From Amphiscolops sp. MND2022 (Eukaryota): a stretch of 64,000 nucleotides of DNA. Below are positions 3,042-52,948 of this stretch, in pieces. The position numbers and the translations under genes are program-made. Location of the stretch: contig OZ076409.1 in NCBI GenBank assembly GCA_964187785.1, positions 6,760,001 through 6,824,000 of the forward strand, given 5' to 3'. Positions within the stretch are counted from its first letter, which is position 1. Each line of letters begins with the position of its first letter. The notes beneath the pieces were generated by a model. It saw only the letters and a list, made by a program, of their open reading frames with translations. It did no database searches and was not told where the DNA came from.

Positions 3042-3563
3042 TTACAGCTGAGAGGTTTTTCTAGGTCGTTTCGGAGCCTTGAATACAACCAGGGCCTGAT
3101 CATCTTCATCTGTCGCTTCTCCTTGTTGCACTTCTTCAGCTGTCTGTGCTTCTTGTTTTTCTTGCTCTGCTTTCTCCTCCACTGATGCAGTTTCTCCAAC
3201 TTGTCCCAGTACCTCTCTTGCTTCATCTTCACCGTGTGATTCCAGCCAGCTACGATACTTCAATACCAACCCCATCAACTCGCAATGATGGATGCTTAGG
3301 TGAAACTTTTTCTCCATCCGATCTTTGTCCTGATTGAATTTGAACGCCTTGAGTGTATAATACACTGCCTTTTTAGAAACCAAATCAACGTTGTAGATGT
3401 TTGTTGAGACACGGAAGACGTCGTGTTCTCCTAAATTCGATAAGAACTCACGAGACAAACTATAAATGTTACCAACTTTCACCTTTTGTAATGAGCGGGA
3501 AAAGAACAAATGGAAGTAACTGTCACGTTTGAAGATTTTCAATGATTTTACCTGAAATTTCAA
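3042..3563 (-). CDS. Hypothetical protein (173 aa ORF, acidic/basic C-terminal tail); start uncertain
   Basis: Protein-like ORF with an E/Q-rich tail ending KAPKRPRK. No ATG start; the frame stays open ~70 nt further upstream to a TAG. No recognisable domain. Confidence 0.35.
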   Translation of the reverse strand: MKFQVKSLKIFKRDSYFHLFFSRSLQKVKVGNIYSLSREFLSNLGEHDVFRVSTNIYNVDLVSKKAVYYTLKAFKFNQDKDRMEKKFHLSIHHCELMGLVLKYRSWLESHGEDEAREVLGQVGETASVEEKAEQEKQEAQTAEEVQQGEATDEDDQALVVFKAPKRPRKTSQL

Positions 3564-3687
3564 CAGTTTGAATTGACGTTTTTGCCTTTTTGTTTCGATT
3601 TTTAGACCTTTTTCTTTGCCCTGATTCTAAATCTTATCCAAGTCCTAAAATTATAGATCTCAACTCGTATTGTGTTCGTTTTTGACT

Positions 3688-4128
3688 CTAGAATATTAGA
3701 TCTTTTTCTTTACTCCCACCCGAAATACAGTAACTTGAAATTCCATGAAGCACCAATTCAAATTTCAGAAACTTACTTTGTTGGTGAAATATGATTGTAG
3801 TGAACCTGCTGTCCGTTTTCAACCCGTTATCTTCGGTGACCGGAGGCTTATAAATAAAGTCTGTCGGCGTTTGGCTGAACGCGAGCTGGGTAAAGATTAT
3901 TTGAACCCAGTCCAAGTCCATCAGTTCAGAGAAAATTGATTTATCAACCATCAACTTGATTTCGTCCTCGTTGTGTTTTTGCATTGTAATTTGCATTTTG
4001 TCAGTGTTTTCCACGACTGTTAGTTCCCTACCATTGTGCCAGTTCACAAACAAGAAATTCGATTGATCCATTTGAACGAATGAGTTGGGGCTGATTGTCA
4101 AAGATTTTTCGGTGTTTAGCTCGAACAA
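3688..4128 (-). CDS. Hypothetical protein (146 aa ORF)
   Basis: Protein-like composition, same strand as the adjacent ORF; no recognisable domain. Confidence 0.3.
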   Translation of the reverse strand: MFELNTEKSLTISPNSFVQMDQSNFLFVNWHNGRELTVVENTDKMQITMQKHNEDEIKLMVDKSIFSELMDLDWVQIIFTQLAFSQTPTDFIYKPPVTEDNGLKTDSRFTTIIFHQQSKFLKFELVLHGISSYCISGGSKEKDLIF

Positions 4129-4544
4129 AATTGGTGTTCTGTTCTGAGTTGTTCTTTGGGAAATTTGCTGATTGCGGGTTTGTATGATTGTTAATCTGTG
4201 AGTTGATGGTTACTTTTGTTCATTCAGTCATTTGATAACGGATGAAATTTATTGAAGTTTAAAATCTGATAGCAGTTGAATTTAATTGAAGTTTAAATTT
4301 TTCAAAGAGGCAGTTCAATCATCTTATGACACTAGCTAACTGAGTCAATGTTTGAAAAGTATTAAAATTCGGTTCATTTTCCGGTGTTGTCTGCGATAAA
4401 AGACCATTTCGATTGATAATCAATAATTACCATAGTTTATGATCATAATTATTGACTATTTGGTCTCGAAATATTTGGCATGAATATGAACTTCAGAAAA
4501 GAGTCAGTTTGACCTTTGAGCTTTAAGACTTTGAAAGTTTTCGA

Positions 4545-37336: not shown

Positions 37337-37578
37337 TGTTTTGGGGCTTGTGTATAGACTATGGTCTCCTATCCAAGCAACTAAAACAATGTCCCAGCTC
37401 TAGCATGTGCTCCTTTTGTTGGATGTTACAGGTTGTTCGCAAGCGAGGGCGTAGTTCTAAGAAGCCATATAAGCTCTAAGTACGTTAGAGGGAATGGTTG
37501 CATGATGCCCTCAGAATAAGCCGAACCTTGATCACAAGGGCCCTCGGAGCGGGCTCTTACTATTTCAGGGAACTTACC

Positions 37579-37979
37579 AAGGTTGCGGAGGTGTTTTATT
37601 CATGAATAAAACACCAGAAAAAACATAAAACAATAAAAACTTTTTCAGACACCATTACAGTTATTTAAGGTCTAGTTTCTGACTGTTCCATTTGTTTAGT
37701 ACTTTTTACCTTTTTCACATCAGAATATCTCATGTGAAAGATGGTATCTGGAAAATTCAATGGAGTAAATGACTTTGTATGCTTTGTATTCCTTCGTTAA
37801 ATTTTTGTACCACGAAATATTTGGCAACAAATGAAAAACCGTTGTACATAGCACATTGTTTTCCACGGTAGTTTTCCCAAGAGGAAAGAAACAATAAAAT
37901 ACAAAAAACCAGTATTTTTTGTTTGAAAAACCTGTTTAAAAAACATTTTTCGTGAAAAAAAATACAATTAACAACCTTG
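37579..37979. mobile_element. CAAGGTTG-TIR MITE (P/hAT-like), 8-bp TSD GAACTTAC/CAACTTAC
   Basis: Same family as the SPACA9 intron element (opposite orientation) and 41491-41901. Confidence 0.85.
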
Positions 37980-41490: not shown

Positions 41491-41901
41491 CAAGGTTGTT
41501 AAGGTGTTTTACTCATGAATAAAACACAAGAAAAAACTTGATTAAAACAATTTAAAAAAACACTGTTTTTTCAGACACTTCTTTTCAGTTGTTTATGGTC
41601 TAGTTTCTGGTTGTTCAATTTGTTTGATACTTTTTGTTCACAGATCAGAACGTCTCGTGGGAATGATGTGGAAAAAATTCAATGAAGTGGACAACTTTCT
41701 TGCTTTCTAGTCCTTTTTCAAATTTTTGTACAATGAAATATAAATTTAAATGCAAATTTAAAACCGCTGCGCATAAGACATTGTTTTCCACGGTAGTTTT
41801 CCCAAGGGAAGAAACAATAAAATCTAAACAAAATAGAGTATTTCGTTAAAAAACCTTCTAAAAACATTTTTCGGGAAAAAAACTATAGTTCACAACCTTT
41901 G
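41491..41901. mobile_element. CAAGGTTG-TIR MITE copy
   Basis: Homologous to 37579-37979; TSD not evident. Confidence 0.75.
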
Positions 41902-47752: not shown

Positions 47753-48255
47753 AACAAGACGAGAACGTCTAAAGTCGGCGCTATATCTAAGGCTCAAAAA
47801 GCGCAAAACATTTTTTTCGGAAAAAACTTGAAATTTTTGAAAAAAAACTTGAAATTTTCGAAAAAAAAATTTTTAAGGAAAATGTCGCGCAGTGCAGAAA
47901 AAAATCAAAAGGGGGGACCCTTTAGCTTCGGACGGTTTTGTAGATTACGTTAAAAAAGTACAAAATGAAAGGGGGGACCCTTTGGAGACAAAAAATTTTC
48001 GAAAAAAAGTCGCACAGTGCCGAAAAAAAATCGAAAAAATCGAAAGGGGGGACTCTGTAGTCCCGTCCGGTTTTGTAGGTTACCTTGAAAAAGGTTTGCA
48101 CTAAATTTGCCTTGGCCTCTTTGTCGGACTGGGCGCCTTGGGTGGTTTCAGGATTGTTTCTAAAAAGTGGACCGATCAGTGTGAGGCTGAAGAAAAAAAA
48201 GGTCACTGCTATAGTCGGGCATTTTTCCTTAAAAGGAAAACGCGCCGACTAAAAA
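47753..48255 (-). mobile_element. HINE-like family A copy
   Basis: AACAAGACGAGAACGTC...GCGCCGACTAAAA. Confidence 0.8.
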
Positions 48256-48582
48256 GATGTCATTTTTGCTTCAAGTAACATTGATGTGAACAAAAGCTCT
48301 CGAAATGAAGGTTTTCACTCTCCTGAGTAGTACTTCTTGACCCCGCAATACTGATTTTTACTTTCATGTCACTCTTCGAATTGTAGCTACTTTGATATCT
48401 GGACCTATAAACTACTTAATGTAAAACCAGACAGGTAACCTCTTCCATTATACTGGAGCATTAGCGAAACTAAAAAAGTGTCTTTTGAGTGTAATTATTC
48501 TTTTTAATTGTTTTTACTCAGAAGTACATTTAGAAGTTTTCTACAAAAAAATCGAAATCATGGTTATAATTTTCAATATATG

Positions 48583-49062
48583 TTTTTAGTCGGCGCGTTT
48601 TCCTTTTAAGGAAAAATGCCCGACTATAGCAGTGACTTTTTTTTTCTTCAGACTACAATCCTCACACTGATCGGTCCACTTTTTACAATTCTGCGCAGAG
48701 CACCTGAGGCCAAGTAGTCCGCCCAAGGCAAACTTTACTCCAAAGGGTCCCCCTTTCATTTTTTACTTTTTCAAGGAAACAATCAAGGTCCCCCCTTTGG
48801 ATTTTTTTCGGAACGGTGCGACTTTTTTTCGAAAATTTTTTAATGTCCCCAAAGGGCCCCCCTTTTGAGTTTTTTGATATTTTGCAACGGAATGTTTGTT
48901 AATAAATCCAGAAGGGTCCCCCCTTTTACATTTTTCGGCACTATGCGACTTCTTTTGAAAGAAAAATTTTTTTTCAAAAATTTCAATTTTTTTCCAAAAA
49001 AAGTGTTTTACGCTTTTTGAGCCTTAGATATGGCGCCGACTTTAGACGTTCTCGTCTTGTTT
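48583..49062 (+). mobile_element. HINE-like family A copy
   Basis: TTTTAGTCGGCGCG...GACGTTCTCGTCTTGTT. Confidence 0.8.
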
Positions 49063-50038
49063 GTCCTTAGAATCAGCTGTGTAATTCATTTCATTATTGG
49101 TCAAAATGACTTTCTCGCTTAAGCATCAATAATTATCAGTAATCTCGTCAATCGAATATAAACCTTCAAAAACAAATATTTTTGACATCTGAACTCCGCA
49201 ATAGCATAAAAAACCTACCTCCTTTCAACCAATAACAGGAAAAAAGGAATGATATTGGATAGCAAAAAACTCCAATATTTTCCTTAGTAATACAAGGCGT
49301 GAACAAAGAATTTTTGAGTTATTGTTTTACTGAACAGAGAGCACAAAGCCTTTGGTGAAACCAACACAAACAAGCCTTGAGCTGCTTTGATTTATGAAAA
49401 CCTTGATTCACATACAGAAATATCCCTTGTCTTACCGGCATGTACAATGACTAATACCATGGAACACAGTCTACTAGGTATAAAAAAACACTTATACATT
49501 ATGTAAAACCAAAAAAATCATGGTAACAGCCGCTTCAAAATAATGGCTCCATTGACGAACTCTTTTTTGGATCCAGCAAACTCTGGTTTCTTTGATCCGA
49601 GTTTCTTTATTGCCACATTTTCGCTTCATTTGAAGTTTTGAACTGAAAAAAAACAAAGAAAAAGACTGAGATTTGATTCGAACGAAATGTTTTACGAACT
49701 ATATGTTCGTCACTTCAGTCACAAAACAATTAAACAAAAGACACTTGATAATCTTTTCACTCCTTCTCATGCTGAGTCTAGTTTTCGTTTCAAGAGCTCT
49801 GTAGTTTGAAGTCATTTTTCGTGATCGACTTGAAAGCCAAAACTGGCACGCTGCAAACGCTTTCACCTACCTTCGATGTGAAAAATGGTCACAGTAGATA
49901 AGATTAAGTTGATTGTTGCTTAGCCACTGTGTTTTAATCTCGATATTGGTTTCAATCGTACAATACGTCAAAGCATTCGCTTATTTTGACTTATTCACCA
50001 ACATATGATTTTATTTTGTTTTCTTTTAAAACTGAAAT

Positions 50039-51239
50039 ATGGATGAAATTAGAGAAAAACTGGACGATTTGGAAGACAGGTATTACCGGTTCACCCACCA
50101 ACAGCGTTGCTTCGCCGACGCCCTAACTGCTGGTAGGCGGGGCTTCATAATTCCAGCCCCTATAAAGACGGTAACAGAGGTTCTTGCTCTTTTGGAAGGC
50201 GAAGACCTCGAACGAAGCAAAGATGTTCGAATCGTGGAGGCCTTTGCCTCTATTTTTTCCGACATCGATGCCTTACGCAAGCAGTTCAAACATATCCTCA
50301 TTGGATGCCTGGAGACGAATGAGAAAATCAAGACATCTCAAGCTGCTAAAAAATTGGTCCAGTGTTTGAAAAAATGGCGGACCATGATGGACCCGGACTT
50401 TGATTTCTCGGAACTGAGAGCCAAGTATCCACACAGCGTGGTTGAGAGACTGAGTTCCGTGGAAGCCAGAGAACTTTACGCTGGCGTTGTATCGTTTCTT
50501 CCTATAGCTTTAGATAACGTCAGAATTGCCTTCATTTATTTACAACGTGTTTTCAAACAAACTACTGCCCAAATCCCGTTCGGTTTTTCTGACCAATGGT
50601 CTTCACGAAGTAGCGCTACTTCTTTATCAAGAGCTCTTGCCTCGACACGACCCAACTCAGCGTTTATAAACACAATAAGGGACGAAAACAATAATGAGGA
50701 GTGTCAAATTGAAGGCAAGAGTAGACCCCAAACGGCGCATTCTTCCTTAAAACTTGACATCCCTAAAACTGCCTCAAACGCAACCAGAAGCAACTCCCTT
50801 GCCACAAATGACTTAGCCAGACTTGACACCCCAGCTGTTCGGAGTCCCTCAGCTGCCAGTGCGCTTTCCAGGCGCTCGTCGGGTCACCCAAAATCCAGGG
50901 TTTCATCGTCACACAACAACCGACCCAAAACAAGCAGCTCCGCCGATTGGATCGATATTGAGAATGTCGATGAAGGATTGACTCACGGCGATGTTGAAGT
51001 GAATCCCCGTTATTCAAAAAGTTCTCGAAATTCAGCGACGCGACGTTCGGCCCCCTTGTCGAGAACACCTTTGAGCACCATCAGACAGAGATTGAAGGCG
51101 AATCCAAGGGAAGTTTCAGCTATCCAGGAGAAGCTGAGACAAATGAGATCCCAATCAGCAACTTCCACCCCTGGAAGAATCCAGGCGTTGGACGGGTCGA
51201 GCCAGAACGGGAAGTCGTCAGAAAATGGTTACAAACAAG
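50039..51239 (+). CDS. SPACA9: Sperm acrosome-associated protein 9-like, exon 1
   Basis: MDEIREKL..RFTHQQRCF and LRAKYPHSVVERLSSVEARELYAGVVSFLP match SPACA9 (LRAKYPHDVVNHLSCDEARNHYGGVVSLIP, from recall); long S/R-rich tail follows. Confidence 0.88.
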
Positions 51240-51659
51240 GTTGTTAATTATTCAGTTTTCACGAAAAATGTTTTAAACAGGTTTTTAACGAAATATACTG
51301 TTTTTTTTTTGTATTTTATTGTTTTTTCCTCTTGGGAAAAATACCGTGGAAAACAATGTGTTAAGTAAAACTGTTTTTTCATTTATTGTCAAATATTTCA
51401 TTGTACAAAAATTTAACAAACGAATATAAAGCATGGAAGTCATTCACTCCATTGAATTTTTCCCAGATATCATCATTCACACGAGGCGTTTTGATCTGTG
51501 ATCAAAAAGTACCAAACAAATTGGAGTCAGAAACTAGACCATAACCAACTGAAAAGAAGTGTCTGAACAAAAACAGGAAAAAACGGTGTTCTTTTAAAAA
51601 TGGTGTTCTTCATGTTTTTTCTTGTGTTTTATTCATGAAAAAACACCTTACCAACCTTG
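51236..51659. mobile_element. CAAGGTTG-TIR MITE forming the SPACA9 intron (candidate Introner)
   Basis: TIR CAAGGTTG/CAACCTTG; TSD GTTACAAA (51228-51235) / ATTACAAA (51660-51667). Confidence 0.92.
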
Positions 51660-51668
51660 ATTACAAAG

Positions 51669-52138
51669 TTCCAACTGTGACCCCAATTGCAAATGGCTCA
51701 GCAAGACTGGATCCTATCAGTTCACAGGCTAGTTACAACTTGGGCAGACACTCGAAAAATGATGCCAGTCCAACGTCAAAGTTTACCATCGAGGTTTATG
51801 AGTCATCAAAGGGAAAACCCGACATCTCACCGTTTCCCGTAAGTGGCACCAAAAAAGAAATAGTAGAATCTCCGCGGAAAACATCAGCCACCAAGCGGCA
51901 ACAAGCGTCATCGTCAGCGAGAATGAGTCAGCTTTTGGGCAGGGAAAACAGAATAGATTCCAGAGCGTCTGAATTTGGCCAGTCTTGGCGAGGAGAAAGT
52001 GAAAAGTCGTTCGTAGCGAGTCTGAACAAATTTTCGTCTAATGGGAAAGACAGAGATGTGGCAAGTAGTTCGATCAACCAATCAGCGAAGCTCACGATTC
52101 CTCATACGAGAGGAACAGACAGGCTATGGCAGCCATAA
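51669..52138 (+). CDS. SPACA9: SPACA9-like, exon 2 (556 aa total)
   Basis: CAAG|GT...AAAG|TT splice gives GYKQVPTV in frame with ORF 51635-52138; same S/R-rich composition as the end of exon 1. Confidence 0.78.
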
Positions 52139-52948
52139 AAGGAAGGTCGAACAGCGAAAGTCTGGGTCAACTCGAATTTTGACGAGTTTCAAGATTAATC
52201 ATCATTATTCATCGCGAACAAACTTCATCAATGACGCAGGAATATGTCTTTCGAAGAATAGATGGGAACTATTCATTTTTCGTTTTTCAGTGGAAATAAA
52301 CTAAGTAAAATTATCACGATGAAAGTAAAAGCTCCCAAAAGCTCTATTTGAAATAAAATTTTACTTAATTTTTCAACTTATCATAACGGAAATGCTGTAT
52401 AGAGTCGGATCATGAAGAATCCAAAACTTAGCAAAATTATATAAAAACCGAATTGTGTCTTTATTTTTAGTATTGCAAGAGATGAAAATTTCATTACTAT
52501 CACGCCTGTCATACTGTGCTCTAAATACAGAAGGCCGACTCTGAATTTACATAAAAATTAAGGCAAAAAAGATATCCGTTAAGTTTGCTGCCGGAATTCT
52601 CGGGTAACACGCAAAAATGCCGACTCTTTACGTGAAACTTTCGGGTGGGTGAAAGTCATTTGTCGGTCAAAACTGAAGCTGTACCTAATAAGTGCTTGCG
52701 GAGGTTTTAACGAGGCAGTTTTTTGAAGAGCACTTCTTTTTTTTTCTCCGCCGAAAACGTTTTTTGTTAAAATTACAAAAACTACATAAAACCACTCTTT
52801 ATATTTTTTTGGTCATTTCTTTTGAAAGATTGACAGCCAAAAGCAGTCGGAGTAAAAATTGCAAACGGAGTAAAAATTGAAAAGTTGTCATCAGGTGATC
52901 AATTTGCTCCTGCGAATCGCTTTGTATGAACTGAAACAATTTTCTCTG

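Follow-up and report, generated by a model that had tools for sequence, protein, structure and literature searches.

The window is the whole 64,000-nucleotide stretch of Amphiscolops sp. MND2022 DNA that was analysed. On its forward strand it holds a SPACA9-like gene in two open pieces. The first, predicted exon 1 (50039..51239), is an ORF that starts with the ATG at 50039 and carries the SPACA9 domain (Pfam PF15120) in residues 5-163, encoded at 50051-50527. The match to the profile covers positions 4-149 of 164, with an E value of 3.4e-16 and 59.8 bits against a cut-off of 25. The second piece, predicted exon 2 (51669..52138, forward strand), is an open frame that ends with the stop codon TAA at 52136-52138. 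An AATAAA at 52295-52300, 157 nt past this stop, is a plausible poly(A) signal. Upstream of the gene, positions 47877-49070 are occupied by an abundant interspersed repeat whose frames read KGPPF, FFRHYETFF, and RGDPL on both strands.

Between the two pieces lies an AT-rich element of 424 bp (51236..51659). Its ends, CAAGGTTGTTAA (51236..51247) and TTACCAACCTTG (51648..51659), are complementary at 11 of 12 positions and form 12-bp terminal inverted repeats (TIRs), of which the right one has 1 mismatch to the family form. The element is flanked by the 8-mers GTTACAAA (51228..51235), which is coding as part of GYK, and ATTACAAA (51660..51667), which would be intronic if the element is spliced. 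These target site duplications (TSDs) are identical at 7 of 8 bases, and by our own arithmetic the chance of a match of at least 7/8 for one pair is about 4e-4. Read without splicing, the frame from the ATG at 50039 continues into the element as GYKQGC and stops at the TAA at 51245-51247, inside the left TIR, while a second open frame begins within the element and ends at the TAA at 52136-52138. Virtual removal of the element together with one 8-mer leaves a frame of 556 codons. A first-pass annotation had described a MITE of these dimensions, flanked by TSDs, which would truncate the protein at this TAA if retained; its coordinates and sequence hold, with the TSD at 7/8, the truncation follows from the frame, and its status as a MITE agrees with the TIRs, the TSD, and the related repeats found elsewhere in the genome. 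The stretch 51236-51659 is almost certainly an insertion of a hAT-like, non-autonomous MITE into coding sequence.

Matches to the element occur elsewhere in the host genome (1.07 Gb in 1929 contigs): of 381 candidates 40 were scored, which gave 43 matches with identities of 79-87%, many of them spanning positions 1-424 exactly. The first 16 bases had 74 exact occurrences genome-wide, versus 0 for the reversed control. Within the window, the 12-mer of the TIR was found 5 times with at most 1 mismatch, versus 0.66 expected. Two further copies of the family lie on the minus strand of the window, both less than 14 kb from the SPACA9 gene and both outside long ORFs. One, of 402 bp (37578..37979), has the TSD GAACTTAC/CAACTTAC; the other, of about 409 bp and 79% identical (41491..41899), has no clear TSD.

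We examined 70 loci, 30 from the similarity search and 40 from the 16-mer TIR hits; of the 58 further 16-mer hits, 41 were sampled, and 17 loci were left out. Elements were delimited by an exact left TIR, a right TIR matching at 10/12 or better, and an 8-bp TSD matching at 6/8 or better. By this procedure 42 elements were delimited, with lengths from 121 to 1992 bp (27 are no longer than 443 bp) and TSDs that were perfect in 8, at 7/8 in 21, and at 6/8 in 13. The KGPPF-type repeat was also seen inside loci L016, L022, L034, L039, L055, L064, L066, and L069, nested in longer members of the MITE family.

Transposons of the hAT superfamily have short TIRs that begin YARNG, and a TSD preference of nTnnnnAn. 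The family is hAT-like in that it has an 8-bp TSD and a short TIR starting with CAAGG, in agreement with that motif; its TSDs show the base preference weakly, with a T at position 2 in 19-20 and an A at position 7 in 16-18 of the 42. The genome contains 150 matches to the hAT dimerisation domain above the cut-off. The family TIR, at 11/12 or better, was absent from all 12 hAT transposase loci looked at as possible autonomous partners. No transposase-sized frame was present in the 10 longest family members (up to 1992 bp), whose frames by eye resemble nested repeats, and no oppositely oriented pair of the 16-mer TIR a few kb apart was found among the 74 hits. Compared with the majority of 23 subfamily copies, the SPACA9 copy differs by a K2P distance of 0.08 and 10 indel events. 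At the substitution rates applied, this places the insertion at roughly 18-30 Myr, an age that is probably underestimated because the compared copies were chosen for their likeness to the SPACA9 copy.

A protein search with exon 1 returned two proteins, P0001 and P0002. The former is the window's own ORF of 402 aa, which runs into the element and ends GYKQGC. The latter comes from another assembly, has 522 aa, and is 78% identical to the exon 1 product. It also shares 68% identity with the exon 2 product along 158 aa; the alignment has a single gap of one residue, and the homology begins at YK/VP. Over the insertion site P0002 is uninterrupted and reads ...ESKNSYNVPIGSPIANGSAKL..., whereas the window reads ...SSENGYK[element]...VPTVTPIANGSARL. 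An orthologue without the element had been expected to read GYKVP, and at the protein level P0002 has SYNVP where the predicted spliced product of the window has GYKQVP. Tyr366 of P0002 aligns both with the Tyr of the left TSD and, in the downstream frame, with the Tyr of the right TSD; as deduced from these alignments, this double match is the protein-level image of the target duplication. The anticipated net gain of one Gln also agrees with this orthologue, which is one residue shorter at the site, as expected if the Gln is the element's CAA. P0006, a distant relative, is likewise continuous over the region.

A further database protein, P0003, begins with an ATG that lies within the element and agrees with the window at all but 3 of 167 residues. 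A near-identical genome therefore carries the element as well. We infer that the database proteins are plain, unspliced ORF calls, since P0001 enters the element and P0003 starts inside it, and since P0034, P0037, and P0038, relatives of the ATP-citrate lyase discussed below, end by reading into an intron. The SPACA9 case has a consequence for annotation: calls based on ORFs split such genes, as with P0001 and P0003. No transcript-derived protein of this species was among the matches of the protein-database searches with SPACA9 and ACLY.

The proposed 5' splice site, CAAG|GTTGTT, is formed by the GT at 51240-51241 directly after the CAAG of the left TIR, so that the 12 nt closing exon 1 consist of the left TSD and the element's CAAG. 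The proposed 3' splice site is the AG at 51667-51668, made of the last TSD base and the flanking G; it is the first AG 3' of the element (d = 1, where d is the number of flank bases removed). By frame arithmetic, the predicted intron (51240..51668, forward strand) is a GT..AG intron of 429 nt in phase 1. Joining 51239 to 51669 keeps the frame and gives GYKQ/VP, with the predicted spliced junction ...ACAAACAAG|TTCCAACT.

This intron could instead be an older one at the same site, later colonised by a MITE. MITEs are frequent in introns, and neither of the window's two other copies is in a long ORF. However, the predicted intron is made up of the element less 4 nt, plus the TSD and 1 nt, so that no other intronic sequence is present; removal of the element and one TSD restores the 556-codon frame, and P0002 and P0006 are continuous at the site. 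Colonisation of a previous intron is therefore improbable in the extreme. At the protein level, the predicted intron is absent from the orthologues of SPACA9 and also from those of ACLY, which points to a gain in this lineage.

Exon 2 bears on the fate of the element. The first-pass annotation had noted that the downstream frame of 470 nt is still open and had suggested from this that it remains translated. The 468 nt of exon 2 are open for 156 codons and are colinear with P0002, with homology that begins exactly at the predicted junction. Exon 2 is still under constraint, while the adjacent element, similar in length, has gained about 8% divergence and about 10 indels.

Several other genes are interrupted by members of the family. 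In L012 (ACLY site at C7:71190533-71190945), the element splits the ATP-grasp domain of ATP-citrate lyase (ACLY), which has one locus only in the genome; the flanks match positions 1-113 of the Pfam profile on the left and 116-232 on the right. With respect to human ACLY, the left half ends at residue 113-114 and the right half starts at 116-117, which leaves one junction codon. The only frame-keeping GT..AG pair near the ends joins CAAG|GT with TCAG| and would yield HEPSEE, the sequence of the uninterrupted relative P0034 (87% identical). The relatives P0034, P0036, P0037, and P0038 are all continuous at the site. Among named proteins the closest is ACLY of the acoel Convolutriloba macropyga, with 78% identity versus about 70% for other animals; judged by this single gene, the genome is probably acoel-like. 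We also considered HEPSEE in P0034 as the footprint of an intron lost after its gain, and preferred the simpler reading, in which the codon encoded Pro from the start and a single base that is now intronic has changed; the data agree equally with both.

A second intron, about 453 bp long (L012:363-815, minus strand; G000:C7:71189395-71189847), with the ends AAG|GTGCTA ... TTAAAG|GTT, occurs in the same ACLY gene between K and VLIIGG. It lies outside the MITE family, and P0034, P0037, and P0038, which are continuous ORFs, lack it. Nested in it is a small element with the TIRs CTACAGYGGATCC and a TAA duplication.

In L016 (G000:C1:6601714-6605058), a 947-bp member of the family at 899-1845 interrupts SF3B3. 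Its flanks are colinear with human SF3B3, at residues 604-684 and 686-749 of chain 7b0i_A. SF3B3 is itself a core component of the spliceosome. The element flanks with matches over the Pfam cut-off were those of SPACA9, ACLY, DAP3 (L048), ASC (L055), Sel1, and CPSF_A/SF3B3. In the ASC/ENaC channel, one side matches positions 27-368 of the profile and the other 373-453. A flank match to a rhodopsin-type receptor was below the Pfam cut-off, and none of 29 flank pieces matched a transposon protein family (Pfam, E <= 0.01).

Two elements occur 1.4 kb apart in L034 (G000:C1:6048796-6054100), at 1501-1894 and 3275-4223, and open frames of the same strand flank both. The two may be introns of a single gene, and each is in frame by the TIR-donor rule; the flanks had no Pfam match. 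Weak SPACA9-like matches with 28-35% identity were seen at L032 and L033 (G000:C8:37961519-37961956 and C8:36279983-36280222), one of them in an open frame of 970 aa. Long unbroken coding was observed in L012, L048, L055, and the window at 50039-52138, where the element is the sole break seen. The unbroken stretches comprise ACLY residues 1-340 and the whole of DAP3, the ASC channel, and SPACA9, which suggests that the lineage has few ancestral introns.

If the element were retained in the mRNA, the product of the SPACA9-like gene would be a protein of 402 aa ending at the TAA of the TIR, and exon 2 an untranslated relic. ORF callers give exactly this protein (P0001), and the SPACA9 domain lies wholly within exon 1. 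Against this, the 156 open codons of exon 2 and their 68% identity to P0002 have persisted while the element accumulated about 10 indels and 8% substitutions, and unspliced copies would be intolerable in the single-copy ACLY and in SF3B3. Retention is very unlikely, and removal of the element from the transcript is the reading we follow.

The frame consequences of the proposed sites were evaluated across the family. Virtual excision had to restore an ORF of at least 150 codons, at least 35 of them on each side, which was the case for 16 of the 42 elements. For a donor after CAAG and an acceptor at the first AG past the element, the frame is kept if d = 1 mod 3. This combination was in frame in 13 of the 16 exonic copies (binomial p = 1.2e-4; Fisher p = 0.003). 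The corresponding counts were 25 of 63 in background orientations and 3979 of 11904 (0.334) when an insertion was simulated at each position of these ORFs. The loci had been picked by similarity or by the exact TIR 16-mer, a choice that may enrich copies whose donor is under selection.

Among the 13 in-frame copies, d was 4 in six, 1 in three, 7 in two, -5 in one, and -2 in one. A d of 4 leaves the length unchanged, a d of 1 adds one residue, as in SPACA9, and a d of 7 removes one; a net change of 0 was the commonest (6/13). L021, L035, and L053 broke the first-AG rule. The left end of L035 is mutated to ACAGGT, and its d is 9. In L053 the first AG lies within the TSD (d = -1), and the rule would hold for the next one (d = 7). 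Both strands of L021 carry ORFs, and the shorter of them would agree with the rule at d = 7. Within the subfamily of about 420 bp, exonic copies were found in sense (L001, L010) and in antisense (L005, L012, L034, L038); the occurrence of both orientations fits signals that lie in the symmetric TIRs.

The bias in frame also bears on routes of removal that do not involve GT-AG splicing, for instance, a precise removal from TSD to TSD with non-canonical ends, or a somatic excision of DNA. Non-canonical introns derived from transposons are described for Fritillaria and euglenids in PMC11282704. Precise removal would not predict the in-frame excess at the first AG (13/16 versus 0.334), because it keeps the frame whatever the position of the next AG. 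The predicted intron RNA also folds in an ordinary manner: its minimum free energy has a z of 0.62, and 75 of 100 shuffled sequences fold as well. Such removal is highly improbable, which leaves spliceosomal GT-AG splicing as the preferred reading.

A different choice of splice sites has more in its favour and is still unlikely. Three GTs of the SPACA9 gene (51228, 51240, and 51243) share phase 1, and each keeps the frame with the acceptor at 51668. Splicing might use ATG|GTTACA (51227|51228), with the product ENVP, or GTT|GTTAAT (51242|51243), with GYKQGFP; it might also use an acceptor 33 nt beyond 51668, as the AG that ends 34 nt into the flank is in frame too. Past its GT, the TIR donor AAG|GTTGTT is weak, a poor match to the usual metazoan consensus. 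However, it has the best exon side (AAG) of the three; with it, the commonest net change among the in-frame copies is 0 nt, and ACLY and SF3B3 remain colinear with the human proteins, while with a donor 3 nt further on each would gain a residue. The predicted ACLY junction is moreover that of P0034. For these reasons the TIR donor at 51240 is favoured over the GTs at 51228 and 51243, and the family-wide frame statistics are on the side of the earlier proposal of a donor CAAG|GTTGTT 4 nt inside the TIR. The farther acceptor would remove the 11 residues VPTVTPIANGS, which are conserved in P0002 and are thus coding. The conventional donors met in this host, AAG|GTGCTA in ACLY and CAG|GTAATA in SF3B3, suggest, with n = 2, that positions +3 to +6 of the donor are loosely constrained here. 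Judged from the sequence, it is likely that the element is spliced at exactly the proposed sites.

The first-pass annotation had assigned the acceptor to the last A of the TSD plus the flanking G. This stands for the SPACA9 copy and does not carry over to most exonic copies, in which the first AG lies 4 or 7 nt past the TSD. The family rule would be the TIR donor combined with the first AG after the element, and the TSD-derived acceptor would be a feature of the SPACA9 copy. The TTAAC of the right TIR might serve as the branch site. In the SPACA9 copy this candidate reads CTTAC (51647-51651, forward strand), 18 nt before the acceptor G; at d = 1-7, TTAAC/CTTAC would sit 17-23 nt before the acceptors.

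In the mechanism that we propose, a SPACA9-like gene with an otherwise single exon would have received a non-autonomous hAT-type transposon in the part that encodes its C-terminus, after the split from the lineage that encodes P0002. The pre-mRNA would lose the element as a spliceosomal GT-AG intron, with a 5' splice site provided by the element 4 nt inside its TIR (CAAG|GTTGTT) and a 3' splice site at the first AG past it, formed by the last base of the duplicated target and the next exon base. Splicing would keep the 8 nt of the TSD and 4 nt of the element and remove 9 nt on the right side, a net gain of 3 nt, or one Gln, that would change GYKVP to GYKQVP. Across the family the acceptor would be taken either from the TSD or from the adjoining exon. 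Either orientation would supply a donor, because both TIRs read CAAGGT inward. The family would act as an introner, because it would have made introns in many other genes. We hold this proposal as a whole, a SPACA9 insertion spliced as a GT-AG intron and a family that is an introner, to be probable.

More tentatively, and with somewhat less than even confidence, we suggest a broader reading: an orientation-independent introner family of hAT type in an animal, apparently an acoel-like worm, whose TIR would serve as a 5' splice site at one end and as a branch site (TTAAC) at the other, so that an exonic insertion with a nearby in-frame AG would become a working intron. In this way essential single-copy genes (ATP-citrate lyase, SF3B3, DAP3) would have been seeded, and, with several conserved genes of this lineage otherwise unbroken over very long exons, a tractable animal model of intron gain might be available. 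The TIRs and TSDs of the family are clear, one of its insertions can be dated and has an empty site in a relative, and the family would follow a simple testable rule (TIR donor, first AG past the element, net change of 4 minus d nt). Of the routes to large-scale intron gain, introners are the best documented, and this family would add an animal case.

Splicing of transposons out of genes has precedents. Wessler and colleagues reportedly found that Ds/Ac (hAT) elements are spliced out of maize genes. The SPACA9 family resembles these, as they are said to be, in being an exonic hAT-type element spliced with a donor in or near its terminus. The maize cases differ in that they are single mutant alleles with imperfect splicing, and not a family fixed in many genes. 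The mechanism proposed here is that of introners, a kind that is already known: the genome holds many similar copies, and in silico these form whole introns of protein-coding genes (16/42). What is probably new is the family itself and its host, set apart from catalogued families by names and TIR string only. Among the literature matches listed for the TIR string, all were unrelated and of primer type.

Introners have been reported in Micromonas pusilla and Aureococcus anophagefferens by Huff et al. (2016), as summarised in PMC11282704 and PMC9860276. In Micromonas, one of the two splice sites is brought by the element, and the second originates within the duplicated target (PMC11282704). In Aureococcus the TSD of the introners is 8 bp long, and 4 bp of the element stay in the mRNA (PMC9860276). 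From the text on introners in PMC9860276, Gozashti et al. (2022) describe families that carry a 5' site and co-opt a 3' site, with recruitment from the neighbouring exon, as well as cases that add or delete neighbouring codons. Among 835 animal and land-plant genomes, that survey reported introners in only two animal groups (PMC9860276); a sea urchin and a tunicate were added by the survey of Gozashti et al. (2025), in which about 82% of the classifiable introner families are TIR DNA transposons and whose Dataset S2 lists families classified as hAT, for example, Salvia splendens fam1 (PMC12130899). Four acoel genus names did not occur in the 12 files searched of the 14 in the supplement of that paper (PMC12130899), and our search for literature on acoels and introners found none except one paper on Copia elements.

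The SPACA9 family and the elements of Micromonas and Aureococcus are alike as short non-autonomous TIR/TSD transposons in exons. As described for M. pusilla, the element brings one of the splice sites, and the second is co-opted from the TSD or sequence around it. The Aureococcus element, by its description, differs in carrying both sites and adding 12 nt, whereas the SPACA9 family would provide only the donor and change the length by 4 minus d nt (+3 in SPACA9). The host is unlike the picoalgae, with an animal-like genome of 1.07 Gb, and the likeness among the elements is one of description and not of sequence. With the families catalogued by Gozashti et al., as far as their descriptions go, the present one shares multi-copy TIR DNA transposons that constitute whole introns and splice sites that are drawn variably from the TSD or the exon. 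The MITE introns of Fritillaria borealis, in the account given in PMC11282704, are similar in having an animal host and in being TIR/TSD insertions that form lineage-specific introns, but they mostly have non-canonical ends (AG-AC, AG-AT), in contrast to the GT-AG ends predicted here.
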